64,000 bases of DNA from Balanoglossus misakiensis (GCA_040954595.2 CM082594.2:270208-334207), one strand, 5' to 3'. Positions 5,698 through 34,084 are shown, counted from the stretch's first letter. Made by a program: numbers and translations. The notes: a model not told the origin generated them from the sequence alone.

Positions 5698-5814
5698 CTG
5701 TACACTCTCCATTGACCAATCAATATTCCACAGCACAAGTGCAATAAAAAGAGCCTGCTGTATTCACACACTGGCCTCCACAAAGATCTGCTCTCTCCAT
5801 ATATTCATTGACAT
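5698..5814 (-). pseudogene. Calcium-binding EGF pseudo-exon
   Basis: ttcag|...|gtaaga, 117 bp, phase 1-1: DVNEYMERADLCGGQCVNTAGSFYCTCAVEY*LVNGECT (first Cys lost, TGA stop). The copy at 24761-24881 has an altered 5' end. Confidence 0.85.
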
Positions 5815-6144: not shown

Positions 6145-6939
6145 GATGGGTCCCCCGTATCTTTTTGCCCGTTGCTATGGGCCTATATAGGACATTACAC
6201 CCCGATTTGGACTAAGCCGTTTTCAGAGTCTAACAAGGGGCTGGCAACAAGTTGAAAATCTGCACGATTGTGAGCGCGCGCCCCCTGACGCCATTGATAT
6301 GCAATTTAGCTAGGTCAAATTTCAAAAAGCCTAAGGCTTTTTATTCCGTGACCTAAAAAACGAACTTGATACGTATTCATTAGTTGCTCGAACCAGGGAA
6401 GATCGTGACGGATTTTGTTTTCGAATATTATCGTTGTATCCTACGATTTCAGCATACCCGTACCACACCTGAAAAAGTCATCGATTTTGGGTGTTTTTGG
6501 ACGCACTATTCCACCGGTATCGCTTCTTAGCACGATGAAAACTGAAAAAACGATCTGTCACACTGTGCGGAAGTACGTTCTCAACAAGCAGGTCAAATTT
6601 GGCTGGCCTACGTCGCCTGTGAAAAAAGGCTTAGGGATTTTTGTGAACGGTGCAAAATCTCTGTGTACAAAACATTGGATTTTTAGCGTTCGATCCAGTT
6701 ACTGTGGTTACGGGACGCGCACGCTATTGCTGACCGCTGCTTTGCCGTATTAGCGTGGCGGCCTATGGCCGGGCGGTAGCTGCCGTAACCATACTCGGAC
6801 AGAGTGTGTGCACACTATCATGCGTATTTTTAACTGGTTACAAGCCCCTTGTCGGACGTTTATAACGGTTTCGATCAAAATTGAGTGTAATGTCCTGTAA
6901 AGGCCCATAGCAATGGGCAAAAAGATAAGGGGTCCCATC
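6145..6939. mobile_element. Non-autonomous Kolobok-like element with TTAA TSD
   Basis: TTAA-GATGGGTCCCCCGTATCTTTTTGCCC ... GGGCAAAAAGATAAGGGGTCCCATC-TTAA. Copy B has a single TTAA at the empty site (25215-25218). Confidence 0.85.
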
Positions 6940-7556
6940 TTAAGTTTTGAAATGATCATTCACGGTGATGAGTTATCAAGAATATACCCGTTAAAAATTA
7001 CTGTACCCTCAGAGAAGCATTTTGTAATGTCTTTAAAATTTGATGAAAACTATATGAATTTTCTAAGTGTATATTTATTCATTTGCAGAGGTAATTTACT
7101 TAGCTATAGGTTGATAATTTATGTTAATTTCAATGAATTATGCAAATAAGTAGTGAAAATACTTGTACATGAATATATCAGACAGTCTTATAGTGTCGTG
7201 TGAGGTTGATGACACATATTCTTAACCACATATTTCTTGATCAATTAATTGTGTTTACACCAAAGTCCTCAATATCCATGGCAATCTCTTCCTAGGAATT
7301 GTGACACTCTCTCCAAAATCCCCTGAAACTTGTGTACCCTGTCAGCAAAACTTTGTCTGATTTTTAAAATACAGATTACTTTTTCACCCTTGCAAACACA
7401 TTTTCAAAGATAAGTTTTCACATTTGTTAATTTGTTTATATTATGCATAATTATAATTGGAACAATTCTAAGATACAATTTCAACAAACATGTGTTCAGT
7501 ACGAGTGTGCGGTTGATTTCAAATTTTAAAATGTGTGCAATGGATAGACAGGATGT

Positions 7557-7753
7557 GTGTTTAGCTGATTGTAACCATAGCAATATGCAATCCCCAAAAA
7601 CAGTGTAGCCACAGAAGAGACCAATGTTTAGCTGATTGTAACCATAGCAATATACAATCCCCAAACAATGTAGCCACAGAAGAGACCAATGTTTAGCTGA
7701 TTGTAACCATAGCAATATACAATCCCCAAATAATGTAGCCACAGAAGAGACCA
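7557..7753. repeat. ~62-bp tandem repeat x3 (also 25820-25874 plus 26623-26765)
   Basis: Repeated tgtttagctgattgtaaccatagcaatatacaatccccaaacaatgtagccacagaagagacc. Confidence 0.9.
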
Positions 7754-7771
7754 AAATCCACAGTTACATAC

Positions 7772-7894
7772 CGCCACATGCATGGCCATCTTCCAGCAGA
7801 TAGAATCCTGGTCTGCAAGCGCAGAGATAACTACCATGGGTATTCTGACAACAGTGTTGACATGCATTTCCACCACTGTGACATTCATTCATAT
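7772..7894 (-). pseudogene. Calcium-binding EGF exon (frame open)
   Basis: ttccag|...|gtatgt, 123 bp, phase 1-1: DMNECHSGGNACQHCCQNTHGSYLCACRPGFYLLEDGHACG. Neighbouring exons are disabled. Confidence 0.85.
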
Positions 7895-8123
7895 CTGGAA
7901 GGTAAGAAGAAATTAGAAATTATTTACAAGCATTACATTATTCAAGATAAGCCTACTCTTGACTACTGGAATCTCACACCAAAGACACCTGGGCTCAGAT
8001 TTATAACAAGATGGGGATAATTTGTCTCAATTTGATCATTTGAGACAAAATATCCCCAAACTTATATATTGTCGATGTAACATTATAATATAGTTATATC
8101 ACTGTCAGGCATTTATGTCCTAC

Positions 8124-8187: not shown

Positions 8188-8899
8188 GAAGTGTGAGATG
8201 GTCAACTGGACTTGAGGCGTTTGAGTTCAACCAAACTTTATTTCTAAGTCTAGGAACTGCATGCACCAACTAAGGCCTACAAAATGGCTTCTGGATTGAA
8301 GAGAACTCACAAACACATGCAATCACTTTTATAGGAGTAAACAGGTGTTAAAATAACATGTAAATTTTAGAGTTTGTTTTTGTTTAATAAGATTTGTATT
8401 CAAATTCTATTTCTGAGTCTTACATAGTGATGACCTTTTGTCATGCATTGATGTCATGCAACCACTCACTAATTACACACATGTGTTGGTGAGTATCTAC
8501 AACCACATGTTGAACCTCTTTAAATTGGACACCTGCAATCCAAACAATTTCTTCAGTCCCTTTGGTGTTAGACGGGTTTGACTGTACTTGAAAGTGCAGT
8601 TGATATACAGAACAAAATGCTAAAAATAGAAATTGCAGACACAGTGACCCTTTAAAGGCCCTGCTCAACAGTTGCGTGCTAACACAAAGGATTTCTTATT
8701 TGTCTTCATTGTTCTGCCCTGAGATTGAGAAAATGGCCTTTAATATGTAAAGTGTCAGTTGCAGGTGCATGGCAGTACAATTGACATGATCCTTTAATTT
8801 TACAGTGCAATTATAAGATAATACTTACAAATCCTCCAGACATTATTCTGAAGAGAGATATGTATGCTTCCTGGCTGTTATTCACAAACTGGAACTCCA

Positions 8900-9302
8900 C
8901 AGTGCGTGAGTTTTGAAACATGGCACCAAGTGATTGCTGTGGGGAAAAAAATTGACTCCAATCACCATCCCTTGTGCAGGCAAAAGATCATGATATTGCC
9001 CTCGCTAACATGTGTTATTATTTAAATATTTCACCTCTACTTATGCAATGAATTAATGAATACAAAGTGTTGTAGGTCATCCAACATGAGAATGTCACTA
9101 ACAAAATTATCATTGAGTTTCAAATCCCAAGTAACAGTGGACTTATATAGTTTATCACCCAGATGAATTTTTTTATCTAAATCTGCTCCTGTCGTATAAG
9201 GTTGCTTTGTTAAGACATACAAAGGGAAATGATTGCATTGCATGTACACTGTGTGCCTCTGGATGAAAGACCAATCTGTGTATTTCCTTGATGGGTACTA
9301 CC
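8900..9302 (-). pseudogene. Decayed peptidase C76-like (herpes tegument USP-type) domain (copy at ~27060-27461)
   Basis: GSTHQGNTQIGLSSRGTQCTCNAIISL, then after a frameshift GADLDKKIHLGDKLYKS..LMLDDL; matches the GS-x-HQG...G-x-QC and D-x-D-x-x-x-x-x-GD-x-LY motifs of C76 domains. Confidence 0.65.
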
Positions 9303-9468
9303 ACACGTTGTTCAGCCAAGCTCATAATTTGTGTAATGTGTACCCTCCAAAGATACATCTGGAAGCACCCTAAAAAATGCTCACTATCCAACATGATCCA
9401 ACCACAATAACCCCATTGACCTACAGTCAATTGTTTTAATTAGTTATTTGTATGTGAGCTGTACACAC

Positions 9469-9637
9469 CTCTTGCCATTCCAAGGCTCCGTGCCAAACAA
9501 CACTTTTCTGCTGTTGTTGTTGTTGTTGTTTTTGTTGTTGTGGATCAACTTGCTGCTGGTGAGTCAACTTGATGCACTTGAGCTGTAGAGGGCACTGGTA
9601 TGTCCAGATCCATCGGTAGTGAAGTACTGGTATTAGC
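9469..9637 (-). pseudogene. MED25: MED25 pseudo-exon (poly-Q linker and start of ACID/PTOV domain), copy A
   Basis: acag|...|gtgtgt, 169 bp (frameshifted), ending QQQQKSVVWHGALEWQE; compare MED25 LAWSGVLEWQE. Confidence 0.75.
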
Positions 9638-9744
9638 CTGTAATAACACATACAAATCATAACTGTAAATAATTCTGTATTATATTATATCATGCTACCG
9701 TCCACAATTCTGATTGGACGAGAGCTCAATCCAGCGATGCTAAA

Positions 9745-9974
9745 ATTAAGCAATAAAACATCCCTAGCCATGGTGTACCACGAGATTTTGACCAGTTCAC
9801 AACATATACGCAAGAGCGATAGCGAGTGCGTATATGGAGTTGAACTGGTCAAAATCTCGTGGTATACCATGGCTGGGGGTGTTTTAATGCTATTATATTA
9901 TGCCAGTATATTGAAACTTTGCATAAAACCTTTTAAAAAGGCATTTTCTTTGACTATGATATATGACTGTGGTA
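9745..9974. repeat. Crypton-like palindromic element, truncated by a deletion (fuller copies at 27924-28240 and inverted at 29779-30093)
   Basis: ttaagcaataaaaca...ccatggt..cgagattttgaccagttc...gaactggtcaaaatctcg..accatgg hairpin. Family label tentative. Confidence 0.65.
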
Positions 9975-10503
9975 AATAAAAATATTACAACCATTTTACG
10001 GAAGTACCGATTTAGGGTAATGAAAATTTTAACAACCACAAAAAAGGTGTTCTACATCACCACAAAATGATGAATTGGTTGTCAATGGCCATGTAAACAA
10101 GTTGTATATTTGTCCTTTGAACTTTAGAATCTGGATTGTATGATTTCAAATATTTGCTTAGCAACAGATACCCAAGCAGTCACGCAGTTACACCCATTGG
10201 AAAATTGTATCACCCACACCAAGGTGGGTGGAAGTTGGTCCTGGTGCTTTTTTTCCCATGATTCAAATTACAGTAAACGCCATATTAGAAATTCTGCCAA
10301 CTTTCCCTCGATTTTGTAAAAAAATATGATGACTTATACATGACAAATATTTTTTTTTCTGAAAGAGTGACCTCAAAGCTACCAAATTATGTAGAAATTA
10401 CCTGGACCGGATTTTCCCTTTAAGGATAGATTGTTCAAGACAAAAGTAATGGCTTGAATAGAATATTACATGCACATTTCTATTAAGGACACCTCTGTAT
10501 TAA

Positions 10504-11034
10504 AGGGACAAAGTCTCTCTCTCGCTGCCCTTTTTTCCATTAATAATGTTTGATACAAGACACTGTTTATGTTAATGTACATGAGTATATGTAGTAAATA
10601 AACGTTCAACCATACACAACTTCCATCCCGCGTGTATGATATGGGAGTAAAAACTCACCCAAAACGAATAAATGGTAGAGACTGATTATTCATTTTGGCG
10701 AGTTTTTTCACTCATGTCCACAAGCAGTATATATGTTACTTTTTATCTACTTTCTGGGGGCATTGCAGGGTTGTTCTTCATTAAGTTTTTGGGATTTTTT
10801 TTTCTTTTGTGTCTTTCTTTTATGGCGTTGTTTCTGGGTTTGTTTTGTATGTTTTTTTTACAGTATGGGCATACGGCCTGAATTAAAGAATAAATAAATA
10901 AATAAATATACTTTGTGTGTGGTTGAATATTGATTCACTATATATCCACATGTAGAATAACATAAATAGTGTCTTGTATCAAATATAATTAATGGAATAA
11001 GGGGCAGCGATCGGGAGAGAGAGCCTGTATCCCT
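10504..11034. mobile_element. Kolobok-like palindromic MITE, TTAA-flanked (copies at 33267-33621 and 60390-60734)
   Basis: TTAA-AGGGACAAAGTCTCTCTCTC ... GAGAGAGCCTGTATCCCT-TTAA with long internal arms. This copy has an extra ~175-bp insert (~10731-10905) ending in (AAAT)n. Confidence 0.75.
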
Positions 11035-11233
11035 TTAAGGACATGTTGTGTGATCCCAGAGGTGCCCTTACTAGGCAGGTTTCAATGTACTTCACATGTG
11101 AGTTGTACTTTACTGTCGGTATGGAATCATTTCCTGGTTGACATGGTGAGCTTTACATACAGATAAACCACCTCAAAAAGTGGGGGCTATAACTAGAGAA
11201 TGATCTTTAACCTCAGAATTTTACCATAATTAC

Positions 11234-11332
11234 CTTGAATATCGTAAACTCTTCATATCGTCAAATAACTGCACTGCAGTACTTAGACCTTCTGAAATCA
11301 TACTGTATTTCTCACCTGCTCCTGACAAAAAT
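11234..11332 (-). pseudogene. MED25: MED25 vWA-domain exon, copy A
   Basis: ttcag|...|gtaatt, 99 bp: [32 protein letters not shown] vs MED25 [31 protein letters not shown]. Confidence 0.85.
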
Positions 11333-11619
11333 CTGAAATACAACACAGTACAATTATTTAACAACAGGTGTATGTAAACAATGTCTACTCCGATTGTAGA
11401 CAGATTTGGTTAAACATTTTACGAAACATTTAAAGGTAGGAACCTCTAATAAAAGCCAGTGAGTCAAAGGACAAAACTGAGTCTTTGAAACAGTAACCCA
11501 TTGCCAAGTGTGACAGGGTGATGCGATCAGGCTAATAAAGGAGTTTTAATTTACCTTAGTATACTAAATTTAGAATAAACGAAAAAATCTACAATTAAAA
11601 AACAACTGTTACAACGGGT

Positions 11620-16312: not shown

Positions 16313-18074
16313 ACAACCTTAGGACCTGGGATAAGATTTCTCAGATGAGTTGGTGAAATTTTTGCTTGTGTTAGTCAACATATACCTGATAAGTGTAAAA
16401 AATTGCATCAAGGACACAGTGGTCCCATTCAGTCTACACGGAGTACATATACACAGTCAGATCGCACGGTGCTCATTTGCATATGAAAGTTTATCAAGCG
16501 AGCGACCGTTAACTTTCAAACAGACTGCAATAGGCCAATTTTCAAGGTGATTTTCAACTTGATTTTTATGCTCTGTTGTGCAATAAAATACCATGTTAGC
16601 TGGATAAATTACGAAAGTGATTCCCATTTTTCACTGCAGACGTAAATTTTATGAAAATCTGTCGGTAATAGTAGAAGTTTTTAACGTGTTTTCAGTGGTA
16701 TGTTGGTGACCCCGAAAGAGACGTCCACAAATGTGTCAAAAATCATTTGAAAACGACCTCGGAAGTTAACCAAACTTTCCTGACAGAGAGGTCTAATATC
16801 GGTCCCGACATCCGTGAAAAGAAATTAATTCGAAATGCTATTTTCCATATTATGATGTTCAGTATCAGTGATTGGTGATGGTGATTCTAATAGTGGTGAC
16901 TTATCTGTATATTTTGGGCATACCCCATACTTTTTCGATGTGGTACAGAATCCAGGGTTCCCATTATGTGGATTACTGCAGTCATTGCATTGACACGCAG
17001 GGCCACAACCATTGTGGGTCTTATAAACATTTACAACATCTGCTATTACAAGTTGGCATCTTTTTGCAGCCACACCCTTTTGTTAGCAACTCCAAATTAT
17101 TTTTCACTTTTTCTAAATTGGCATCACTGTCCCAAATAATATCAAGTTCGCCGTTGCTTAGTCTGTATCCATAATTATTGAATAAGGGAAACGTAACATG
17201 GCACTGATCGGCCTGGGACCATAACTGAGAGACCCAGCATGATCTTTTCCAGTGCAGTTGTAGGGCTTCAAAGGAAGGGATACATTCTTCCTCATACTGG
17301 ATACGTGGCCAAATTGTTTCTCGTATATATGTAAGCCATTTGATGTGGTTATCTTTAAGACTGTTAGTGACACTGGCTACTTGTTGATAAAGTTCAAAAG
17401 GATGAGATGCATCAAATGCTTGGAAATGTTTCTTAACATAAACACTACCTTTTAAACGTATGAAAGCGAAAATTCCATTCCCTACACTGTCTACTGTTGT
17501 GTCTATCAGTGTTCCAGGTATAAGGGTGCCACTAGTTATAAATTCAGGGTATTGAAAAAATGTCTTGTAGAAAGATATCTTTCCGATGCCTGCAAAGTAT
17601 AGTCACAACCTGTGCATATGAACACTGTTTGAAATATTTTGCCTACATATTGGAGGGGAATATGTTGCAAATAAGGGTCTAAATTTAAATCTGATTTGAA
17701 TTGATTCATGTCTAAATAAGTGAGATTGGATAAATCATTATCCAGTTGTACAAATATCTCCTTTTGAACATGTTGATATAGTACTGGGAGGAGAACATGA
17801 TAAGTATCGGTATCAGGGGAGTAAATAACACCTTTCTTGTAAGAGGACTGAACTGCATGAAGGATGCATCTACTGTCAGCTTCTTCATGACAACTTTTGG
17901 CTTCCCACTCAGACACAATTCCATTACTACCGACGAAAAGACTCTTGTCCCTATTTTCCCCATCAAAGCCACCTGCTGTAATGAGGACATGATCACCTTG
18001 CAGAGCCGGTACAATTATTTGTAAAGATGTGGCTGACAAGAAGTTCACTAGTTTTCTCTTGCTTGGCCTACAAT

Positions 18075-19060
18075 TAATGTATGTTTTGAGCTAATATTAT
18101 TGATTTCCTATTTTTATGCATTTGTTTGTATTTTTCCATGTTATTGGTAAAAAGTCTTCATTTCTGAAAGTGATGGGCTTACTTCTTTTAAATTTAGTAT
18201 GAAGCTTCCCAATTGTTGTCTGAGTAACCATAGTTTTGTTCAAATTGTTGCAAAATTTGCATATTTATAATTTTGAGCAATATTTGCCATTTTTGGTCAA
18301 TTTTTTTTTCTTTAAAACCGCATGCCAGATTGCTTTGCAATTTTGTAGGCATGTTCGTAGGTGTAACCCAAATAATATGTTGTAAAAAATGTGAAATTTT
18401 CATAAATGTGTTATAGGGGAAACTTTTTCAATTTTTGTCAAAAATTGTTTTCCTGAAACTGCTTGTCATATTGCATTGACCTTTGGCAGCATGTTCCTTG
18501 TAGTGGTTGAAGTAAGGTATTGTACAATTTTGTGTTTTTGCCACTTTTGAACAAATATTTTTTTGTGAAACTGCTTGTTGATTGCTTTGAAATTTGTTTT
18601 TTCTCTGATTGCTTTGAAATTTAGGATATAATTTCATAACACATACATGTATATGTGCAACTTTTATTCAATTCTGATATCACAAATATTCAATATTTAG
18701 CGAGTTTTTTCTCCTAAACCAATTGTCCAGTTGTTTTGAAAGTTACTGTTTACAAGGAGTTGTTACCCCCAACTTAGACATGTTTACATAACTTCAATAA
18801 GCCAGCTGTTAGAGAGACCATGGGCTATTAAATTGTTTATTACCAGTGGCAGGTCAGTGTGTGTGTCTGTCTGTCTGTCTGTTTCAGAGATGACTGAAAG
18901 AAGTTGCTTCTCATATGTGTTTGTACAGACAATTTTTGGTCAATTTTTTTTCTAGCACTACTTGTAAGACTGTAATGACACATGACAGTTTATTGGGCAT
19001 GTTCCTTGTTAATTTTTTTTACATTCCATATTTCTATATCGTAAGATCATATCTGCTTGC
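18075..19060. repeat. Repeat-derived insertion or intron interrupting the transposase
   Basis: No transposase frame; gattgctttgaaa / ttgtaggcatgttc subrepeats shared with 58850-59585. Confidence 0.55.
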
Positions 19061-21465
19061 AATGTCACCTGTAATTTGTATTGGGGTGTGTCACTGTTTC
19101 CGCATAATCCTCAAATGGGACCACAGTGTCCTTGACGCTATTCTTTGCTGTGTCATCTGAAAATATATTAGTTAGCTCCCTGGCGGTATTATGTGGTGAA
19201 AATACATCAGCACTTTCAAGACAATTGATATACAACCTGCAGTTTGACTCAAGTATTTTATGTACACTAACTGAATTATGGGTTTCATTTTGGAAAGGAA
19301 ATAACTGATCTTTTAGATTCTTGGCAGCCATAGCTCTATAGGGTAAATAAATTGCTATTCTCTCCATTAACCCACCTGTAGAAGTATGCAATGCAGCTTT
19401 AACATCTTTATTGACGCACATTTCATGGGCTTCATCTAGTGCTACATTAACCCAAGTTGAGCCTGACAAATTGCAAACAAAACCACCTGCTTTGAAATGT
19501 AACAACAGAGAGTTTGGCATCTTCAGAAGGTCAGCAAGATTTCTTGGAATTAACCTCAAGTACAGGGATCGGTCATATGCATGGAACAGTGGGTTTATTT
19601 TTTTCAAAGCCGATATTCGAAGGTTCCAATTTCCTGACCTTATTGCAATGTACAAAGACATGTATGCAAACAAATCTTCCTCTATAAATCTAACCCAAAA
19701 TTTGAAAGTTTTGTCTGTATTTGCCCTTCTGCTCAGTACGTGAAATATCCCATAATTCATTCTGATTTGTACAATCAGAGATTACTCAGTCAAACCAGGC
19801 AAAGTTCACATGTGTAGAGAGAATTGTAGACCACTAATAGAAATTTTGAGATCTTACTTTTAAGGTGAATCTTATTGTCAATTACCATTTCAAATGATTT
19901 AGAAAATTATGTATTATTGAGAGAGAAGATACGAATTTTATAAAATAATCAAGCAATTGCATAGCCAGCCATACCAAAAAGTTTGGAGTAAAACAGGGAC
20001 ACTTGAAACACCTGTTTAATCAAACAAAATGATATTGATATTTTCTTTTGACAGAACAATTGAAATTTACATGTTAACTTTCAACAGAGACTGGCCACCT
20101 CAGTCAATCATTGCTTGTTTCCTCATTGCTTGTTTCCTCCAAAGTGTGGCATTTGCAGTACATGAATACTTTGATTCTTATTGCTTTTAAATTTTGATTT
20201 TGGAATTTCACTCTAATTCCTCAACGTACTTTTCCTAGATAAACATAAATAGATTTATATGTACTTCATATCATTGTTAATATCTAAAACAGAAAAAGTT
20301 ATTAAATGGGCAACCTTCGATGATACAAATCATGGAGAATTGTGGGTAAAATATCGTACTGTGTTCTGTCACAAAAAATCTGAAATTCCTCTTGCAAGCG
20401 AGTAAGTTGAGCCTTAAGGTCACCATTAATTTTGTCAATATGATCAGCTTTATCTTCAGTACATTCCAAAGATTTTGTGACAGCTTCTAGTAAACATTTT
20501 TGGACTGTTTCTGTATTTAAGGGACAGTGCTGGGTATTATGGGTGTCACCCCTCTTATTCAAAAAGGAATTGACAATACATCTAAACATACTTTCCCAAA
20601 TTTGTGTTAGGAAGCGATGAGTTAGCTTGAAATTTGTACACTGTACTAGGGTTTCCAAAGTTCCCCCTTTATGATTGAACCCTGCCAGATGTTTTAGGCC
20701 AGCATCCCAGAATATTTTCATGATGACTGGTTGGTAATTTTTTAGAGTGTGCCAGTCTCTGATAAAAGGCTGCAACCAGTCTAAATTTGCACCATACATG
20801 TCTTTTAATTTTATCAGGTGATGGAAAGTTTTCCCATCACCAACCACAACCAGGTATTTTATTCTTACACCAACTCTGAATGTAACATATACAGCTTATT
20901 GATAATGTTATGGAAAGTTTCAATGGTGTCTGCGTGTTCACTTGATATGCCCAAATAAATGACATTTGAGCATTCACTTTCATTACTGTTAGCATTTGTT
21001 GCTAATGTTGATTTAAAATCCCCAAAAACTGTTTCTATATCAGCTCTGTGCATTGCATTTTTCTGTAGAGCAAAAATGAATTGTCAGAAAACAGTTCTGA
21101 CCAAGCAATGGCTTCTTCTTGTTTAATGTCAAAATCTGACAGCGAAATTGATGACCGTGGTTGATGTTGTCTCAGTAGAGGTGGTTTAAATACTACATCA
21201 TTATGAACAGTATCATTGGATTTTTTTCTCCGTAAATGTACGGGCTTTTCTCACAGGTGCACTCAAACCTGTACCAGTATTTTTTTAGATAGATCTGTCA
21301 ACCATGATTTTAGTATTATTTCCACAAATTGCCAAAAATTTCATTCATTTCATAGTCTACTGTATTTTGTGAACAAAAGCCACTGTTTAATTCCTGCCAC
21401 CGTTCAAATGAATTCCGTGCATTTTCACTCACCAGACTATCTTTACTTTTAATTAACTGCCTGTT

Positions 21466-21945
21466 AAGAAGCAAATCATAATGGCCTGGTTGACCTGGCC
21501 TGTCTGGTGTGTACAATAGACAGACAGGCTCAGTCTTGGAGAACACATCACCATCACCTCTTGCAAATATATCATTCTGCTTGGTGTATATATGTAATGG
21601 ACATTTTGCAACATACACTACAGATATCATTTCTGGCATACCAGCATATTCATCTGCCTTTTCCATACATTGTGTTCTGTGCAAAATGTCCATATAACGA
21701 GTGCCGTCTAACAGGACATCAAGTTGTGCATCATCCATTCCTTCAAAGTATATATGATTGGCACGCATTATGTCTACTGTATCTGCTCTTAACTTGTCTG
21801 CGAATATTTTCTCTCGGTCAGCTAAAATTGGGTCAGAAGGGAGTCCACTAGGTAAATGATCGCAATTTTGCAATGCAATATCATTTCTCACAGAGATGCT
21901 CCTGAAAAAGCACCTTCCATCACCATATATGTTGATTAGCTTAAA
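21466..21945 (-). other. OTU-family cysteine protease (deubiquitinase) domain within the transposase ORF 21316..22209
   Basis: IYGDGRCFFRSIS (Asp/Cys box), YAGMPEM (W/Y-G-x-x-E motif) and PGHYDLL (His box), in frame with the upstream DNID/HGT..QP transposase motifs. Confidence 0.85.
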
Positions 21946-24900
21946 ATCTTTGACAGTTGAATGTTTGTCATGACTGCCAAAAACAATATCATCAACACTG
22001 TTCAAAATTGACTTTGGTTTTGGTTGGACCATTTGATAAGAAGTACCGTGGAAACCTCTGTCCTTTGGATCAGCTCTAACAGCTGCATATTTAGCTGATT
22101 TATCAATATTGTCAATGGAAGTTATACAAAATGCATTATTTGCAATATTTTCCTCTGTGAAATCAGCTGATGTTCTTTTGTTGATAACTCCCAACATGTA
22201 TCTATGCAATGTATCTCCAGAACAAATAATACCAAATCAATTTAGAATTTTCACTAGAGTAGATGACCTACTATAACCTTCACCAATGTCAGCCAGGTAA
22301 GTATACAATGGGTAAGTACAATGATCAGAACAAGTGAACAATATCATACACACAAAACAAACGCCTGAGGAATCGTGCTCTACTCTCCATAGAGTGCTGG
22401 TCATAAAATCCATAGTAGTGTTTATTGCATTCAAAGTTGGGGCTTTTTAATTTACTGCATTCACTGTTGTTCAACGAATTGCTAGGACGTTGTGTTGACA
22501 TGTACACAGCGCGAGACAATGATTGACAGGCAGAATGTATCAAAATTCTGGCCCATGTGACTGACTCCGCGAATCTGATTGGTAGACAAGACGCAAAAGT
22601 GTAAAAACTTGAAAGTCGATTTCACTTTATGAATGAAAGTGATTCCATAATTAGCATATCTCGTTGGGGCCACAGATCGTTGCACAGGGGAAAGAACGTA
22701 ATCCCGCTAAATAAACTACAAGGCCGCTCGAATATTTTAGCGGGATATTGGAATATTGTATCCTACCTCTTCTAACGAAAAATAAGAAGACTGTTCATGT
22801 GATAAATATATAATCCCATGATATTTTTCTTTATTTAACGTCATCGTATACTCGTGGTTTTCGCGGAGTCTAGCAACTTCTTGCCTACAGCTCGAAGTTG
22901 CACGGCTCTGCGAAAACACTCGTATACGATGACGTCAAACAAAGAAAAATATCATGGGATTATATATAAAAATAGTATTCCATAACACAGGGTCAATCTC
23001 ACTGACAATATATTCAACATCAAGTGTACTCAGATCAACTGTGTTTGTTTTGCAGTAATTACTGAATTTTTAAGATTGCTGATAAATGCTGACATTTAAT
23101 TTCACAGCCACCAAATCAAGCATTTTGAAAAAGTCAACGTCAACTTTACTCAAGTCTCATACTTGCTTTTCAAGCCTCTCTATCTGTTTCTCAGCTTGCA
23201 CAACATACTGGGGATGTTCGACAAGTGCATTTTGGAGGGAATAGTGAGATCTGAACCCGTTCGGTACAAAAAGGTGGAGAACTTTCTACTCACTTTTGAT
23301 ACAACAGAAAAGTGAATTGGATAATACACACATAGAAATTCCCGAATAAGCCAGCTATTAGGTTTTCTGTGGAATTCCACTGGTTGTACCTTGACCTTGG
23401 GTCGCAAAGTCTGATATTCATCATCTAAACAATCATTGAAATATTGCCTGACGTCAAACAATAGAATGGCGTGTTTTCTGAGGAGCACTTCTCCTAAAAA
23501 GACAGCAGTTTTCCAGCATGCAAAATTCACCAAGTCGGTGTCACAGCTGCAGCCTTTTTGTAGCATTGTGACATATTTTTTAATTTCTTCAGCAAGTGCT
23601 ATATCACTCGACATAATTAGGCCTTGTTGAATACTACACCTTGCTTTTTCCGCTAAAGCAACAAATGTTTTATATCATTTCAAACAAATCAGGCTGTCTT
23701 GAGTAAGGGCAAATGGTGTGTTAGTTTGTTGGTGAAATGTTTGCACCATATCAAAATCAGGGATTTTAAACAAATTGTTTGCCCGCGATAAGCACGAAGT
23801 ACACAAGGGATGGCTTTTTCTCATAGCAAGGATGTACTGACATTGACACAGTGGAAATGATGAAAATCCTTTAAAACCTGAGTTGTCTATACTCAATTTT
23901 GTACACAGTCCTGTTCGCCTGAAATCAGGTCTATAATGTCGCGTAAAAAAATGGCCTATTTCGCGACCCTTCAGCGGGGCCCACGGTAACGGCTACATGG
24001 TATGAAGTACTTTCCCTCATTAACATATGTTAATGAGTACCATGCGATCTGACTGTACAGACACACATACACAACGAGAGATTAACAGGCAAACACTGGC
24101 TGACCCATAAGCTGCCAATGGCATGTGTACTGTACACACAGCAAATGGTCTCTTTAACAGATAGCCAGTTATGAAAACATGCAGTTACCAATCACTGTTA
24201 TTATTGACAAATTGCATCCAAGTCCAGACCCAGGCTTGAATACAATTTTTAAACAATAACAACATTGCTTACCCTGCTTCACCGAGCTGAACAAGAAATG
24301 ATGGTTGATAACAAGCATAATACTGAATAAAAATTCAAAAGTTACAGATATAGGACCTTTCGTTGCCCACATATTATATTACCATGGTCTGTGCGTCGCA
24401 TTTTAATTGGGCAAGATGAACGACATCACTGACCACAAATACCCAGTAATGGTTTGTTTACATGCCCGTAAATCTGAATAGTAATATTAGCAAATAGTTC
24501 AGTGAACACAACATTTTGCATAACACAAGTTCTGGGGCCCCTAGTCTTGTGTGTGGGACATTTTCATAAATATTGATGGTTTTCTTGAGATTGTTGGTAA
24601 TGTAATGGAAATAAATGTAGGGCTCGGGCTCTAGGAAAGCCAAATTTCATGGGCTCAGAAGCCTTGCCCATGAATTTTGGGCTTTCCCCTCGCCCTTGCC
24701 CAAAAACAAACGTTAATGGTCAGGGCGTTGTGCATTATTTCTATATTGTGTTGATCTTACCTGTACACTCTCCATTGACCAATCAATATTCCACAGCACA
24801 AGTGCAATAAAAAGAGCCTGCTGTATTCACACACTGGCCTCCACAAAGATCTGCTCTCTCCATATATTCATTGAGAAAAATCTGAAATCTGAAATCAAAG

Positions 24901-25874
24901 GTAGTTATTATTAATAAATTTATTATTATTTATTTCCTAACAAAAGTAATACACATACATCTCAGTGCATTTTCTACAGAAAATAATAAAATTAGAAAAC
25001 AAGTGAAAGCTTAAAGGATAAAAATTACACTTAAAAACCCCAAACAAACAGAAACAGTCCTGAAAGACAATCCCTATAAACCAAAAAAGCAATGGAATGA
25101 AATAGTGCTGAATAAAAGGACGAGTCTTAAAAACCCCTTTGAAAACTGTCAATAGATCCAGCATTGTGGATAGAAGGTGCACAAACACTGAATCCTCTTT
25201 AGCCATATGCCTTGTTAAGTTTTGAAATGATCATTCACGGTGATGAGTTATCAAGAATATACCCGTTAAAAATTACTGTCCCCTCAGAGAAGCATTTTGT
25301 AATGAGATGAAAACTATATGAATTTTCTAAGTGTATATTTATTCTTTGCAGAGGTAATTTACTTAGCTATAGGTTGATAATTTATGTTAATTTCATTGAA
25401 TTATGCAAATAAGTAGTGAAAATACTTGTACATGAATATATCAGACAGTCTTATAGTGTCGTGTGAGGTTGATGACACATATTCTTAACCACATATTTCT
25501 TGATCAATTAATTGTGTTTACACCAAAGTCCTCAATATCCATGGCAATCTCTTCCTAGGAATTTTAACACTCTCTCCAAAATCCCCTGAAACTTGTGTAC
25601 CCTGTCAGCAAAACTTTGTCTGATTTTTAAAATACAGATTACTTCTTCACCCTTGCAAACACATTTTCAAAGATAAGTTTTCACATTTGTTAATTTGTTT
25701 ATATTATGCATAATTATAATTGGAACAATTCTAAGATACAATTTCAACAAACATGTGTTCAGTATAAGTGTGCGGTTGATTACAAATTTTAAAATGTGTG
25801 CAATGGATAGACAGGATGTGTGTTTAGCTGATTGTAACCATAGCAATATGCAATCCCCAAACAGTGTAGCCACA

Positions 25875-26622
25875 AGTCGCTTGCACACGTGCAATGATTA
25901 GGGCGCCCTTTTTGGGATTATAAAAGTTGGTAAACATTTCTTATCAGCGACTCAAATAGTTTTGCATTCACATGTGTATAAAAGGGACGGGATCACCGCA
26001 CTCAATGCGTCCACAGCAGCGTGGCTAAAGGTCGCAATGGCGGATTCAGTGATGTGTTTACTGTATATGTAGCTCTGGACTTATACCCAAACAGCGTATA
26101 AGTCCAGAGCTACTGTATATGGTACTCCTGAATTTGCTTTTTAAACGTCGCCGACGCCGATTTCATGGGCATTTGAATGAACCGATACCGGTTTATGGTA
26201 ACCTTTCATTGGAGGTTGCGCCTGGAAGTCTGCAGTCCATGCTACTAAATCGTCGTCGGAGGTCGAGTTTGCAATTCCTTTGTATGTGCCTTGGCCATTT
26301 CTGCGTCACTCCAATTGTTGCCTCGAGACACTGCTTCGGCCATTGTTTTAGTAAAGTGAACCTCAACGCTTAATGCAGCGCTTAATGAGACAAACCGCGC
26401 CGGCAGAGTGCGTTTAGATCGGCGTTTAGTGCGGTGTTTCTGTTCACACGTGATTTGAATCGCTGTTTAGTGCGGCGCCCCGACCCAGGTCCCACCCCTC
26501 AACACCGTCACAAAAAAGAGCGGCGCAGGGCCGCTCTCACCTTTTCACACGTGGCACTTACAAATTAACGCCGCCCTAGGGCAGCCGCTGGGGCGGCGTT
26601 GAGGGCACGTGAGAAAGGCACT
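25875..26622. mobile_element. Harbinger-like non-autonomous element with 3-bp TSD ACA
   Basis: AGTCGCTTGCACACGTGC ... GCACGTGAGAAAGGCACT; ACA duplicated at 25872-25874 and 26623-26625; empty site in copy A (~7611). Confidence 0.75.
26070..26112. mobile_element. 43-bp micro-element, TAG...CTA termini, 9-bp TSD (AcademH-like)
   Basis: ctgtatatg-TAGCTCTGGACTTATAC ccaaacagc GTATAAGTCCAGAGCTA-ctgtatatg. Confidence 0.75.
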
Positions 26623-26783
26623 ACAGAAGAGACCAATGTTTAACTGATTGTAACCATAGCAATATATAATCCCCAAACAATGTAGCCACAGAAGAGACCA
26701 ATGTTTAGCTGATTGTAACCATAGCAATATACAATCCCCAAACAATGTAGCCACAGAAGAGACCAAAATCCACAGTTACATAC

Positions 26784-26906
26784 CGCCACATGCATGGCCA
26801 TCTTCCAGCAGATAGAATCCTGGTCTGCAAGCGCAGAGATAACTACCATGGGTATTCATACAACAGTGTTGACATGCATTTCCACCACTGTGACATTCAT
26901 TCATAT
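26784..26906 (-). pseudogene. Calcium-binding EGF exon, copy B
   Basis: Copy of 7772-7894 (DMNECHSGGNACQHCCMNTHGSYLCACRPGF). About 855 bp of upstream intron present in copy A is missing, changing the polypyrimidine tract. Confidence 0.85.
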
Positions 26907-27646
26907 CTGGAGGGTCAGTTGCAGGTGCATGGCAGTACAATTGACATGATCCTTTAATTTTACAGTGCAATTATAAGATAATACTTACAAATCCTCCAGA
27001 CATTATTCTGAAGAGAGATATGTATGCTTCCTGGCTGTTATTCATAAACTGGAACTCCACAGTGCGTGAGTTTTGAAACATGGCACCAAGTGATTGATGT
27101 GGGGAAAAAATTGACTCCAATCACCATCCCTTGTGCAGGCCAAAGATCATGATATTGCCCTCGCTAACATGTGTTATTATTTAAATATTTCACCTCTACT
27201 TATGCAATGAATTAATGAATACAAAGTGTTGTAGGTCATCCAACACGAGAATGTCACTAACAAAATTATCATTGAGTTTCAAATCCCAAGTAACAGTGGA
27301 CTTATATAGTTTATCACCCAGATGAAATTTTTTATCTAAATCTGCTTCTGTCGTATAAGGTTGCTTTGTTAAGACATACAAAGGGAAATGATTGCATTGC
27401 ATGTACACTGTGTGCCTCTGGATGAAAGACCAATCTGTGTACTTCCTTGATGGGTACTACCACACGTTGTTCAGCCAAGCTCATAATTTGTGTAATGTGT
27501 ACCCTCCAAAGATACATCTGGAAGCACCCTAAAAATCAAATCGTTTATCGAAAAATGCTCACTATCCAACATGATCCAACCACAATAACCCCATTGACCT
27601 ACAGTCAATTGTTTTAATTAGTTATTTGTATGTGAGCTGTACACAC

Positions 27647-30600
27647 CTCTTGCCATTCCAAGGCTCCGTGCCAAACAACACTTTTCTGCTGTTGTTGTTG
27701 TTGTTGTTTTTGTTGTTGTGGATCAACTTGCTGCTGGTGAGTCAACTTGATGCACTTGAGCTGTAGAGGGCACTGGTATGTCCAGATCCATCGGTAGTGA
27801 AGTACTGGTATTATCCTGTAATAACACATACAAATCATGACTGTAAATAATTCTGTATTATATTATATCATGCTACCGTCCACAATTCTGATTGGATGAG
27901 AGCTCAATCCAGCGATGCTAAAATTAAGCAATAAAACACCCCCAGCCATGGTATACCACGAGATTTTGACCAGTTCACAACATATACGCACTCGCTATCG
28001 CTTGTGCGTATATGGAGTTGAACTGATCAAAATCGAGTGGTATACCATGGCTGGGGGTGTTTTATTGCTATTATATTATGCCGTTATATTGAAACTTTGC
28101 ATAAAACATTTTAAAAAGGCATTTTCTTTGACTATGATATATGACTGTGGTATATTGCTAATATATCACGGTCACGTGTCGTGTCTCGACCAATCAAATA
28201 GCGTGATTTACACCATCAATATACTGGTATAATATAATACTCAATAATGCACTGCTGAACTAGCATATGGCAGCAAAAATGTGCGGTTAAACCACAGTCG
28301 CGCATGTTTAAATCAAATAAATAAAACAAAAATACTGTTGAATGAACAGATGTTTCATTTTGGAACTGCTCTGTGAAAATATTTGTCACTTTGTCACGCG
28401 CGATGCCCGTCTTGTCACTTTTTGTCGTCTGCTTCATGTTTAATGCTCGATCCCGGCCGCTCGTGTTTACATTCATCGTCGTCATGTTAGTTCACGATCG
28501 TAATTTCAGTTTCGGTAAGAAAATGACACTGATATGCCACAAAAACAATTGTTGATATAATATAATGGCAATAACCCCCGCCTCAGTCGGGTATACACTT
28601 GATTTGGGTACAATTTCCTCCATATAGCACTCGCCTGACGGCTCGTGCTATATGTCTCGAATTGTACCCAAATATCGCGTATACCCGCCTTCAGTGGGGG
28701 TTATTGCTTAAATATCAATCACATGATCTGGCCATGTGACACAAAGCATTGTCATTTCCAGGTAATGGGAAAACAATATTGTGGTATCATGTTTCATTTT
28801 GGAACTGCTCTGTGAAAATATTTGTCACTTTGTCACGCGCGATGCCCGTCTTGTCACTTTTTGTCGTCTGCTTCATGTTTAATGCTCGATCCCGGCCGCT
28901 CGTGTTTACATTCATCGTCGTCATGTTAGTTCACGATCGTAATTTCAGTTTCGGTAAGAAAATGACACTGATATGCCACAAAAACAATTGTTGATATAAT
29001 ATAATGGCAATAACCCCCGCCTCAGTCGGGTATACACTTGATTTGGGTACAATTTCCTCCATATAGCACTCGCCTGACGGCTCGTGCTATATGTCTCGAA
29101 TTGTACCCAAATATCGCGTATACCCGCCTTCAGTGGGGGTTATTGCTTAAATATCAATCACATGATCTGGCCATGTGACACAAAGCATTGTCATTTCCAG
29201 GTAATGGGAAAACAATATTGTGGTATCCCGTATAATATTTTTCCATATGTGTTTATACTTTAGAACCACCAGACAGGTAACATGTATCAGTCATGGTGCC
29301 TCAACAGCATCTTGGCATTCGTCTGCACAGTCGTCATTTGCACCACATTGCTGAAATTCCCCGTTAGCTGGAAATTTGAATGCCAACGGAACTGCGTCTG
29401 ATGTCATTGATATCAAAGAAAATCTTTATCTACTGGTCATCCAATGTCCTCAGTTAAGACATCAAGCTGCCATCTTCTGATGTCATGTTAGGTAACAAAT
29501 TATACAAATGCAGTTCTATTAAAATACTGAAAAGTGATAAAATGTCACTTGCCAGGCAAAAGGGATAGATGGGTATTATAACTCAGTTCATAACATAACA
29601 TACCAATGACTGGTTTTGTACATGTACTTGTGGCTGTGTCAGAGTTCGAACAACATTGGTGCCAGTGGTGACAGGTGGATTCTTGCTAGCAGCTCACATT
29701 AGGTACTGTCGGTTGTGTTGACTGCACTCCTGTTTGCATCGATGACTGCATAAGTAAACAGAGTAGTATTAAATCGTTATTATAGTATACCAGTATATTG
29801 ATGGTGTAAATCACGCTATTTTATTGGTCGAGACACGACACGTGACTGTGATATATTAGTCATATACCACAGTTATTTATCATAGTCAAAGAAAATGCCT
29901 TTTTAAAATGTTTTATGCAAAGTTTCAATATACTGGCATGATATAATAGCAATAAAACACCTCCAGCCATGGTATACCACTCGATTTTGACCAGTTCAAC
30001 TCCATATACGCACTCGCTATCACTCGTGCGTATATGTCATGAACTGGTCAAAATCTCGTGATATACCATGGCTGGGAGTGTTTTATTGCTTAAATAACTC
30101 CAACATTAACTTTGGATATCAGCCGTGATGTCTTATTCTACTCTGTAAAACATTAAGAATTACCGTAATCACGCCAATAATTCAACCAGAAACAAATGGC
30201 TGGAAATTCACAGTAGGCAATTACGCACTGGTCCAACACTTCGAGGTTATAGAATAATTAATTATCGAAAGAATAGTGGAAGGTCGAACTAATGACACGG
30301 TTGAACAGATGGCACGATCAAGGTACTCAGAGTTTGGTTTTCAAACAATGGTGTTCTACATATTGTTCAACATTGTTATTGTTGAAAAATAAATTCTAGT
30401 CTGAGTTCATTTAATATACACAATGCCCATTACTCATGTACAAGTTCTGTTGAAAAGCTAAAGACTGAACATTTCATAAAGCTATCCAGAGCTGAACAAG
30501 AAACTAGGGTTAATTCCTTCAGTGAAAAATACTGAAAAAAAAAACAAATGTTAATTTGCCTTTAGCAGTTAGCAGAAAATGTCACCAAAATTTTACCATG

Positions 30601-33600
30601 ACATTGGCGTATTATACCATTGATAGGAGAATATGAAAAGGGGAACTTGAATATTTTTTTCCTCAGGTTTTGGCAAAGTATAATCAAACCAATCGAAATG
30701 ACTGCAGTGGCAACATAACATATTTGACAGTCAAATCTGCACATTAATTGACCCGTCTATAGAAGCCACCTGTCTATAAATGCCAGTTTAGGAAAGTCCC
30801 TTGACTGGCCAGTATAGACAGGTTTGACTGTACCTACCTCTTTGTGGCTGTGAATCAGTACCTGACCATCTCTAGGGTTTGGAGTTGATAGGATTCACAT
30901 CAGCAATTGGTGGAGTCTTACTGAACTGACTAGCATTTGCCATTTGCATGACACCTTCTACGGCTTTCAGTGCAGCAGCTGGTGCCTGCTGGGAAGTCAT
31001 CTTTGGTGGTGAAATTGCCTGTCCAAAAAGAGTAACAAACCTAGTTAGTATGGAGCATTATCAAGGCCAGTATTCAAACCACCATGTTTAATTCATGACT
31101 TCCAATTTTTAATTCGATGTTGAACTTGCAACTCTTGAAGTCCCATTTTCAACACACACACCGACATTTGGACAGGATTGGGTTTAGGCTTTTCACATTA
31201 ATCTCATTAAAATTGGAATTGATCTCTGAGTCTGTGGCATTATCCAAATAAGTCTTTGCATTGACAGAGTGGGCTTCTAGCAACCAAAACAGAAGTTTTG
31301 AATGTGTTTTGAAAAAAATAGTCTACTTTAAAGGCAATGGTAAGACAAGGCTATGTGAAACAGTCAAAAAAAGCTTTCAATTCACAGGATGGGTAACTAG
31401 AAACAGCTAATTTAAATCTCATAAAGTAGAAGATAGACCACAAGTGTACCTGGGTGGATGAAAATTGTCTCATGGAGATACTTGAAACAGTCACATTGGG
31501 ATGTGTCCTGCTTGCTGTGACAGTGGATACTGGTTGGTTTGGAAAAGCGGTAGGCTGGGCAGAAGGCATTGATGTCCTTTGAACTTGGCCCTGCATCTGG
31601 GGCTGACTTGGTTGAGTCAGTTTCTGTTGAGAGGACGACAGTTTTTTGTGGAGACTGACTTCCAATTTGACTTGGTTGTCCAGGTGACATGTGACAGATG
31701 CTACTCAAGGCATATACAAATACAAGATGGCGTAACTGAATCATAGTAATCTTTCTCATGGTTTTCATACACAGTAAGCTACCATGGGTATACCACACTT
31801 AACTACCAAGTCTGGATTTGTTGCAATCTGTCATGGATATCCCATAGGGTACTTTGACAGAGTAAATCAGACTGCATGAGTATTGGGTGATAAGTAATTA
31901 TAACTTGGGTAATTAAAATAACCAGTGCCTGGGAAAGTCATTAAAACCTGCAACTTGATTTGACTTGGTCAGCCTATAAGTGCTTCCCACTTGTTACAAC
32001 TTAGGATACATCTGATTAAAGCCCATGAGGCTAAGTGATGTTTTTTTCAGGAGGTGCCCCTGCCTGAAATAAACATACCTTGGCAGAGCAGCTTTACATA
32101 ATTCTACTATATATCACACTTCACTTGGAGGTGTAATTATGTGCGGACTTAATTTGACAATGGCTGGGAAGCAACACTGGAGACTTTACCTGGAGATGAT
32201 CTTCCAACAGTTGATTTGAGAGGATTTGAGGTCATACCAGAGGTAGGCCCTGTAACCATGGTAACTGTTGATGCAGGTTTCCGTGGATGTGTTGTGGTAG
32301 TGGTTGTAGTGGTTGCTATGGTTGTAGGTTTCACTATGGCATCCTCTTTCGTATCACCACTAGACACAGATTTTTCTGAAACACAATCATTACAAAAATG
32401 GAGGATTATAGAGTTGATGTAAAATTCTGCTGTGGATTCACACAATGTCACGAAACTTGTCTTGAACCTGTACCAGTGTTTCATCCAGGATTTAACCATG
32501 GAAACTGATTGCCCACCTTCCAACAATTTTCAGGAGGATGTGTAATTCATTGGCCACGCATTGAAATGATGGGGAATAATAGGCTTGGCTTGTGCAAGTA
32601 CTGCAACAGAATACACTGCATCACTCGCGAAATAACTTCTGTAAGCCTCAGATCGTGTGCAGAGGTCATGAAGTTCTGGCATATTTAGTATTAGCCAACC
32701 AAGAGCGAATAATAATATGTGATGTGTAATAAATATTAATAAAAATATTACAACCATTTTACGGAAGTACCGATTTAGGGTAATGAAAATTTTAACAACC
32801 ACAAAAAAGGTGTTCTACATCACCACAATATGATGAATTGGTTGTCAATGGCCATGTAAACAAGTTGTATATTTGTCCTTTGAACTTTAGAATCTGGATT
32901 TTATGATTTCAAATATTTGCTTAGCAACAGATACCCAAGCAGTCACGCAGTTACACCCATTGGAAAATGGTATCACCCACACCAAGGTGGGTGGAAGTTG
33001 GTCCTGGTGCTTTTTTTCCCATGATTCAAATTACAGTAAACGCCATATTAGAAATTCTGCCAACTTTCCCTCGATTTTGTAAAACAATCTGACGACTTAT
33101 ACATGACGAATATTTTTTTTTCTGAAAGAGTGACCTCAAAGCTACCAAATTATGTAGAAATTACCTGGACCGGATTTCCCCTTTAAGGATAGATTGTTCA
33201 AGACAAAAGTAATGGCTTGAATAGAATATTACATGCACATTTCTATTAAGGACACCTCTCTATTAAAGGGACAAAGTCTCTCTCTCGCTGCCCATTTTTC
33301 CATTAATAATGTTTGATACAAGACACTGTTTATGTTAATGTACATGTGTATATGTAGTGAATGAACGTTCAACCATACACAACTTCCATCCCGCGTGTAT
33401 GATATGGGAGTAAAAACTCACCCAAAACGAATAAATGGTAGAGACTGATTATTCATTTTGGCGAGTTTTTTCACTCTCATGTCCACAAGCAGTATATACT
33501 TTGTGTGTGGTTGAATGTTGATTCACTATATATCCACATGTAGAATAACATAAATAGTGTCTTGTAACAAATATAATTAATGGAATAAGGGGCAGCGAGC

Positions 33601-33920
33601 GGGAGAGAGAGCCTGTAACCCTTAAAGGACATGTTGTGTGATCCCAGAGGTGCCCTTACTAGGCAGGTTTCAATGTACTTTACACGTGAGTTGTACTTTA
33701 CTGTCGGTATGGAATCATTTCCTGGTTGACATGGTGAGCTTTACATACAGATAAACCACCTCAAAAAGTGGGGGCTATAACTAGAGAATGATCTTTAACC
33801 TCAGAATTTTACCATAATTACCTTGAATATCGTAAACTCTTCATATCGTCAAATAACTGCAATGCAGTACTCAGACCTTCAGAAATCATACTGTATTTCT
33901 CACCTGCTCCTGACAAAAAT
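27647..33920 (-). pseudogene. MED25: Partial MED25 pseudogene, copy B (exons 33920-33822, 32375-32190, 31700-31450, 31018-30838, 29745-29604, 27815-27647)
   Basis: vWA exon [18 protein letters not shown]; S/T/Q/P-rich exons with GT-AG ends; SQQAPAAALKAVE resembling MED25 AAQVAAQNAVE; last exon VVWHGALEWQE. Frameshifts in at least two exons; other vWA and ACID exons not found. Middle exon boundaries are less certain. Confidence 0.75.
28350..29227. repeat. Apparently perfect 439-bp tandem duplication containing a Crypton-like hairpin
   Basis: 28350-28788 repeated at 28789-29227; hairpin centred on cactcgcctgacggctcgtg ending ttattgcttaa. Confidence 0.9.
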
Positions 33921-34084
33921 CTGAAATACAACACAGTACAATTATTTAACAAAAGGTGTATGTAAACAATGTCTACTCCGATTGTAGACAGATTTTGTTA
34001 AACATTTTATGAAACATTTAAAGGTAGGAACCTCTAATAAAAGCCAGTGAGTCAAAGGACAAAACTGAGACAATGTCCCTTTAA

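Follow-up and report, generated by a model that had tools for sequence, protein, structure and literature searches.

A predicted OTU domain between the first two conserved aspartates of a decayed Academ-type transposase from Balanoglossus misakiensis

Introduction

Proteases acting on ubiquitin or SUMO are found in many groups of transposons. Ginger1 transposases bear a C-terminal OTU or Ulp1 domain, for which a link to ubiquitin and repair has been proposed (Bao, Kapitonov, and Jurka 2010, PMC2836005). Helitron and Helentron elements are described as encoding OTU and VTD deubiquitinase domains; VTD is active on K48 and K63 chains, protection from degradation has been proposed, and as of that 2022 paper transposon OTU domains had not been tested (PMC9741609). 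Here we describe a decayed AcademX-type DNA transposon in a 64,000-nucleotide stretch of the Balanoglossus misakiensis genome (GCA_040954595.2 CM082594.2:270208-334207; hereafter the window, with positions counted from its first letter), in which a domain predicted to have the OTU fold lies between the first two conserved aspartates of the transposase.

The Academ superfamily and its AcademX lineage were reportedly described by Kapitonov and Jurka in 2010 and by Kojima in 2020. AcademX elements encode one large protein in which a DDE core is followed by an XPG/FEN1-like nuclease and a C-terminal Cys-rich (Cys8) finger. They have a 3- or 4-bp target-site duplication (TSD) and a nuclease (PMC10045372). 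No description of an OTU domain in Academ or inside a DDE fold was found in the literature searched, which did not cover Repbase or Kojima 2020, and prior cataloguing is possible; PMC5751038 uses OTU only as a filter, PMC10799480 contains no OTU, and PMC12973397 proved irrelevant.

Results

The transposase frame and its embedded OTU domain

A stop-to-stop frame on the minus strand of the window (21316-22236, 306 aa) runs from the first transposase Asp into the OTU domain without interruption. It contains the motifs SIDNID (22119), FHGTS (22053), GDGRC (21924), YAGMPE (21648), and GHYDL (21486), and is followed downstream, in order, by VGDGKT (20844), RDWH (20760), DEAHE (19436), HEEADS (17889), SPDTD (17820), TGCDY (17613), and a Cys tail (17080-16987). 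An earlier, sequence-only reading of the window had claimed both a single frame from DNID into the OTU, which proved free of stops from SIDNID through GHYDL, and the downstream series VGDGKT/DWH, DEAHE, HEEADS/SPDTD/GCD, and Cys tail, all of which is found in that order.

The pre-core helices, RNase H strand 1 (SIDNID, first conserved Asp codon 22113-22111), and strand 2 (FHGTS) occupy 21952-22398 on the same strand, with one stop at 22239-22237. The OTU-fold cysteine protease domain predicted by the family profile, model, and structure matches described below follows in frame at 21463-21951 (minus strand), where GDGRC and GHYD provide an Asp (21921-21919), a Cys (21912-21910), a His (21483-21481), and an Asp two residues past the His; the catalytic-type Cys, His, and Asp/Asn of OTU proteases are thus present. 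Next on this strand come a frameshifted segment with the linker, a helical subdomain, RNase H strand 3, and helix A (20868-21462; tblastn of homologues P0005 1126-1188 and P0093 685-734, and alignment); strand 4, in which VGDGKT supplies the second conserved Asp (codon 20838-20836), DWH, and the start of a helical insertion domain (20368-20895; DUF6589, E 1.4e-5); and the remaining insertion domain with the DEAHE helix, whose likely catalytic Glu is encoded at 19424-19422 (19146-19731; homologue mapping).

The OTU call in the window copy rests on homologues and structure because Pfam alone falls below its cut-off: PF02338 scored E 0.21 and 12.5 bits against a threshold of 23.3, and a single-sequence PDB search with the window OTU returned no OTU match. 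The Pfam cut-off is passed by 4 of 10 scanned OTU-bearing Academ relatives. A profile of 52 sequences matched OTUD5 with E 6e-7, and its above-noise matches listed are OTU proteins or OTU-bearing viral L proteins. When the window protein was modeled on that alignment, the predicted local distance difference test score (pLDDT) was mostly >90 within the OTU, whereas the isolated DNID-HGTS part was modeled with low confidence. The OTU model gave VIA Z scores of 12.6 to OTUD3 and 12.3 to OTUD1 and a Foldseek E of 1.5e-5, and all 31 chains at Z ≥5 are OTU-family entries. The domain is predicted from this model to have an OTU fold, which together with the OTUD5 profile match supports the OTU domain of the sequence-only reading.

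Position of the OTU domain within the RNase H fold

The homologous Patiria protein P0014 was modeled from an alignment of 40 sequences (pLDDT 82; predicted template-modeling score, pTM, 0.58). In this model strand 1 spans residues 441-450 and holds D445, strand 2 spans 464-474, the OTU 498-665, strand 3 856-863, and strand 4 893-897. D898 comes next, then strand 5 (919-923), the inserted helices, and, from residue 1156 on, the DEAHE helix. The P-element transposase aligns over P0014 333-1193 (Z 12.0, 358 residues, root-mean-square deviation (rmsd) 7.6), and OTUD1 aligns on 480-665 (Z 12.1, rmsd 3.0); a P-element match over the whole span with an OTUD1 match inside it therefore places the OTU in the strand 2-3 loop. 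Over the span covered by the P-element enzyme, alignments to Hermes, ISCth4, RAG1, and an integrase give Z 5.9-7.5 (Hermes 7.5, RAG1 5.9). The D-D-E core is predicted to remain folded around the domain. Low-confidence stretches at 488-496 and 719-772 of the model suggest that the OTU is a tethered, separate domain flanked by linkers. The earlier placement of a deubiquitinase inside the DDE core, between the first and second Asp, accordingly stands as a description of the sequence (17 of 43 relatives) and is modified by the model, in which the domain is a separate unit beside linkers rather than part of the core. The strand 2-3 loop varies in length even in relatives without an OTU.

Conservation is nearly complete at D445 (39/39 aligned rows), D898 (38/38), and E1161 (32/33), in P0014 numbering. 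From this conservation and the fold, rather than from a published Academ alignment, we infer that these are probably the catalytic residues.

Distribution of the architecture among relatives

The full search yielded 248 proteins at E ≤0.001, the best 150 of which were listed, and 22 more came from a profile search. Near-duplicates remain among these proteins, and the sample is biased toward OTU-bearing ones because the queries included the OTU. Both the DNID and the GDWH motif are carried by 43 stored proteins, and the spacing between the two is 436-494 aa in 17, 177-272 aa in 23 that have no OTU profile match, and 356-368 aa in 3; in the window copy it is about 451 codons. The OTU profile was built from these same proteins, making its scores on them circular; the spacing class is not circular. 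The 17 proteins have the OTU between the first and second conserved Asp, and homologues of 25-37% identity show the same DNID-OTU junction. Species with a named OTU-bearing member are Branchiostoma lanceolatum, Owenia fusiformis, Amphiura filiformis, Patiria miniata, Acanthaster planci, and Asterias amurensis, so that the layout spans three phyla (amphioxus, annelid, sea stars, and brittle star). Cys and His are kept in 16/16 long-spacing proteins examined (P0178, a cluster-mate of P0156, was left out).

Three loci were fetched, and the two that cover the region each have DNID, OTU, GDWH, DEAHE, and XPG-like motifs in one open frame (2,050 and 2,134 codons); the fusion is therefore no gene-model artefact. 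We regard the architecture as almost certainly real and lineage-wide. Of the 43 relatives, 23 lack the OTU and 17 have it at the same site. The element can do without the domain, which close sister families have lost or keep only in degenerate form. Searches for relatives of 2,492-5,000 aa and for relatives in viral contigs found none.

The two loci with an open OTU-bearing frame each also hold a related SGNH/GDSL hydrolase frame 1-1.4 kb upstream of the transposase frame and on its strand (L001 436-1527 and L002 23-1039). The two frames are 31% identical (E 4e-16) and match Pfam with E 5e-5 and 4e-12; they may represent a second gene of larger autonomous elements, and the window has no match to them.

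History of the OTU domain

The part of the core that follows the OTU was used for an unrooted tree of 31 rows, which were labeled for OTU presence (14) or absence (17, including P0129, which has a weak remnant). On this tree the label requires 6 changes, and strong branches force 3 of them. For 13 elements with both parts complete, the OTU and core trees have 6 of 10 splits in common, their distances are strongly correlated (Mantel rho 0.90, p 1e-4), and the splits found only in the OTU tree have bootstrap values ≤83. The codon make-up of the OTU is like the rest (GC content at third codon positions 0.33, compared with 0.32-0.34 in four downstream parts), and the segment borders show no repeat ≥8 nt, no termini of their own, and no duplication, so that the nested insert with its own termini or TSD that the sequence-only reading had held against itself is not seen. 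Core distances between elements with Cys and His kept reach about 2 changes per site. The data are most simply read as a single old gain of the OTU that was later degraded and lost on several occasions.

OTUs of this kind are also found behind pogo-type DDE_1 domains, frequently together with a PHD finger (P0034, P0106, P0122, and P0125), and in front of DUF4371 hAT-type proteins (P0003, P0021, P0100, and P0151); P0010 and P0018 have three OTU copies each. Cys and His are kept in these related pogo (9/9) and hAT-type (5/5) OTU domains. The OTU tree is without host OTU domains and poorly resolved at depth, and therefore points to no donor and does not show which way the domain moved.

Class assignment

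The element is probably of the AcademX type, to judge by its TIRs, 4-bp TSD, predicted RNase H-fold transposase, and Cys-rich tail; the DUF6589 match of the window core carries no Academ label. The XPG-like acidic set is conserved in 22-24 of 23-24 rows and fits the FEN1/XPG pattern; this part has no Pfam or PDB profile match, and a whole-protein profile searched against PDB sequences found no PIN/XPG or transposase chain. Atlas matches of the homologue P0155 to Pox G5 and XPG clusters (scores 0.77-0.82) are a lead only. Nine Cys of the tail are kept in 22-23 of 22-23 rows. AcademH was rejected: the TSD is 4 bp rather than 9-10 bp, and no RecQ-like helicase family was found in the 11 frames scanned or in the open loci. 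Ginger1 was rejected as well, the core being DUF6589-like and P-element-like rather than of the Gypsy-integrase type, and the OTU being internal.

Element limits and ends

The whole element, 7,602 bp on the minus strand (16454-24055), was delimited by terminal inverted repeats (TIRs), TSD, and homologue mapping; it is decayed, internally deleted, and non-autonomous. Its 3' TIR, at the short end, lies at 16454-16485 (plus strand), with subterminal motifs extending to about 16540, and its 5' TIR, at the long end, at 24024-24055 (minus strand); the two match at 28 of 32 positions. TACA stands directly outside each, at 16450-16453 on the 3' side and 24056-24059 on the 5' side, a TSD read at one site only, with no empty site seen. 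The window contains 3 occurrences of the end pattern, and 100 shuffles gave none. These limits agree with the 7.6-kb element bounded by 28/32 TIRs and a TACA TSD in the sequence-only reading.

Contigs were available from 4 runs (2 samples, 2 studies) at the same locus, with all 30 bins covered. In run X1, 3 contigs diverge from the window sequence at 16453 with mixed flanks, which fits a real terminus; at least one of them may be the element's own other end, as in runs X3 and X4. The ends are unequal (16454-16560 and 23950-24055): the two have 31 bp in common, beyond which three motifs are set 10, 11, and 20 bp deeper at the 5' end, shifts of about one and two helical turns. A perfect 22-bp palindrome at 24018-24039 lies in the 5' end and overlaps the TIR. 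A 33-bp inverted match, 16397-16429 with 19114-19146, was rejected as an Academ end and is the end of another repeat family.

Decay and duplication of the window copy

The window copy is dead, and the decay noted in the sequence-only reading is borne out by frameshifts, two nested elements, and deletions. About 125-150 N-terminal codons of the homologues are missing, and what follows, at 22965-23863 (minus strand), is a remnant of the N-terminal region with stops and frameshifts that includes the last Cys pair and a helical part (tblastn of P0184 125-321 and 358-410, and P0093 149-235). About 210 codons between DEAHE and the XPG-like part, including the start of the XPG-like domain, are also missing (P0005 1579-1793 unmatched) and are replaced by about 1 kb of non-coding repeat-derived DNA (18091-19145), which matches 59083-59482 at 69% and has high summed contig depth. 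A putative XPG/FEN1-like nuclease remnant (HEEADS, SPDTD, GCDY) and a C-terminal helical part occupy 17027-18087 (minus strand), with a frameshift at about 17599. A Cys-rich CXC/TCR-like tail (16828-17080, minus strand; LIN54 CXC, E 4e-5) contains a one-base frameshift at 17025 that is absent in contigs of all 4 runs.

The nested elements are a 162-bp miniature inverted-repeat transposable element with 55-bp arms (22806-22967), whose flanking frame agrees with the homologues, and a 632-bp non-autonomous element at 19732-20363, with imperfect TIRs (CACAGTACG end; CACAGT), a 5-bp TTCTG duplication, high summed contig depth at its ends, and a frame that agrees with the homologues on both flanks. 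From its ends we take the 632-bp element to be Transib-like. Both are in place wherever contigs of the 4 runs bridge them. No contig spanned the whole Academ element, and the contigs are therefore uninformative on intact copies.

The 5' half of the element has a duplicate on the minus strand at 1-4992 (1-975 and 3414-4992) that is 98% identical and is split by a 2.4-kb insert. The duplicate is segmental, because more than 1 kb of flank beyond the element end is also shared, and it therefore provides no independent test of the OTU. Its OTU has an Asp to Gly change and a stop; the two OTU copies differ by 4 synonymous and 4 other changes, the stop included, or 8 changes in 245 codons. A ratio of nonsynonymous to synonymous rates (dN/dS) from these copies was rejected as uninformative at so few changes, which moreover followed the decay. 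Within the insert in the duplicate (976-3413) lies a foldback-like unit, whose 350-bp inverted arms (1477-1826 and 2760-3110) consist of 129-bp repeats.

Other features of the window

The window further holds a many-kb segmental duplication of 95-98% identity, broken by insertions (1-7906 with 21502-26918, and 8740-11481 with 26900-34069). A tandem array at 35600-53200 has a unit of about 1.4 kb with shorter nested periods, 85-98% identical, and a CAT/CAC trinucleotide low-complexity array spans 62600-63400.

Discussion

On balance we favor the reading that the window holds a dead Academ-type copy whose OTU, between the first two Asp, is in intact relatives likely a tethered deubiquitinase that protects the transposase from removal by way of ubiquitin. 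The sequence-only reading had suggested a counter to ubiquitin-dependent turnover or repair signalling at the transpososome, an idea that had already been put forward for the proteases of Ginger1 and Helitron. An intact element would encode one transposase-XPG protein of about 2,000 residues with a CXC finger, which would bind the unequal ends and cut and paste with a 4-bp stagger; the OTU would trim ubiquitin off the transposase itself (our first choice) or off proteins at the cut ends, and the transposition complex would live longer, making gain of the domain useful and not essential. In intact members the OTU is probably catalytically active, and its substrate is, a little less surely, ubiquitin. 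Self-protection as its main role is plausible, with a little less than an even chance of being correct. Removal of ubiquitin from the transposase is favored because the domain is tied in cis and because Helitron VTD enzymes cut K48 chains (PMC9741609). Lys content differs little between 13 OTU-bearing (7.8%) and 16 OTU-less (7.3%) proteins.

Several observations weigh against this reading. Identity to solved OTUs is only 15-24%, and selection on the OTU is not visible in the window copy when compared with its duplicate; a 144-bp deletion in the middle of the OTU is found in a form present in contigs of all 4 runs, from both studies. The domain is missing from 23 of the 43 relatives, which are close sister families, and the catalytic residues are lost in three others, P0054 (Ptychodera), P0025 (a sea-urchin cluster), and P0108. 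The OTU-bearing elements do not form one clade (p 4e-5 in the approximately unbiased test, p-AU), and repeated gain or swapping may therefore have occurred; one well-supported split differs between the trees (core 98/95, OTU 80/92), and the OTU evolves 1.4 times faster than the core. Around the three fetched loci (L001-L003) no ends were found, the best inverted matches being low-complexity and alignments to the ends of the window element no better than shuffles, which leaves the mobility of the open loci putative.

The main rival explanation keeps an active deubiquitinase but directs it at proteins of the host's chromatin or repair machinery (such as ubiquitinated H2A or PCNA) where the element is excised or inserted, so that it would steer break repair together with the XPG-like nuclease. 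The covalent tie between the OTU and a DNA-cutting domain suits this idea, as does the repair-related role proposed for the OTU and Ulp1 of Ginger1 (PMC2836005); the OTU-less sisters, however, keep the same XPG-like and Cys domains, so the repair step needs no OTU, and we consider this explanation unlikely. The same sisters bear on the proposal that the OTU is a processing protease, which would separate the transposase and nuclease parts of the 2,000-residue chain. One uninterrupted and very long frame would be expected of such a system, and some viral OTU-fold proteases process polyproteins, but the fusion is retained where the OTU is not. Moreover, 18 OTU-bearing proteins (27,121 residues) have 2 ubiquitin-tail-like motifs, none aligned, and 18 OTU-less ones (26,939 residues) have 9; processing is very improbable.

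The OTU might instead be a mere passenger, carried in a surface loop that accepts inserts, or serve there for binding with no catalytic role; either way it would be heading for loss. Its absence from more than half of the 43 relatives, the three degenerate cases, weak remnants in three more (P0129, P0118, and P0141), and a loop length that varies without it all lean this way, whereas retention of Cys and His throughout the long-spacing proteins examined and in the pogo and hAT-type domains leaves the passenger idea improbable. A private nested insertion or chance motif match in the window copy might have been suggested by the poor Pfam score, the empty single-sequence search, and the other nested inserts of this copy. 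That explanation is refuted by the same site in 17 relatives and the 2 open loci, the lack of a border repeat, and structure matches confined to the OTU family, and we give it practically no weight.

A broader and tentative conjecture, which we think rather doubtful as it stands, is that in marine invertebrates a single deubiquitinase subfamily has been passed among Academ, pogo, and hAT transposases, repeatedly gained and dropped like a counter-defence gene. If so, hosts would restrict DNA transposons by ubiquitinating DNA-bound transposase, Academ would build the antidote into its own catalytic fold, and OTU-bearing and OTU-less sister families would form a ready natural experiment. Whatever the role of the domain, Academ offers sister families with an intact, degenerate, or absent OTU at one fixed site, together with intact single-frame genes. 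As modeled, a DDE transposase can likely accommodate a complete enzyme in its strand 2-3 loop and still fold, a tolerance of interest for the origin of new transposase functions and for the choice of sites at which to fuse domains. Current annotation misses the fusion; the UniRef label of one such transposase reads only "OTU domain-containing protein."

The window domain shares a predicted minimal OTU fold (Z 11-12.6) and the D-G-x-C and H-Y/F-D motifs with human OTUD1, OTUD3, and OTUD5/DUBA, yeast Otu2, and nairovirus OTU (4bop, 4bou, 3tmp, 7pl7, and 3phu); it differs from them in its 15-24% identity and in about 25 extra residues past the Cys helix, and no single subfamily is favored. The transposase core is predicted to have the RNase H fold of the Drosophila P-element transposase (6pe2 and 6p5a), Hermes, and RAG1, in which a large set of inserted helices likewise precedes the Glu helix. 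Identity is about 11% and rmsd 5-8, and none of those enzymes has an enzyme domain between the first two Asp. With AcademX the element has in common TIRs, a 4-bp TSD, and one large protein with a DDE core, acidic motifs that may be XPG/FEN1-like, and a Cys-rich tail, to which it adds a 165-aa OTU and a longer linker between RNase H strands 2 and 3.

Of the transposon systems that the sequence-only reading had cited for accessory OTU or Ulp1 proteases, Ginger and Helitron are described as carrying such domains (PMC2836005 and PMC9741609). Ginger1 resembles the Academ relatives in its transposase-OTU fusion, its aquatic invertebrate hosts, the optional presence of the domain, and the proposed link to ubiquitin and repair; there the OTU is a C-terminal appendage on an integrase-type core, whereas the Academ OTU interrupts the catalytic fold of an unrelated transposase. 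Helitrons and Helentrons likewise have transposon-borne deubiquitinase domains, but their protein is a rolling-circle RepHel rather than a DDE enzyme, and the VTD proteases belong to another family than OTU. Capture of OTU domains by transposases is common; the internal position, deep inheritance, and patchy loss seen in Academ appear to be new.

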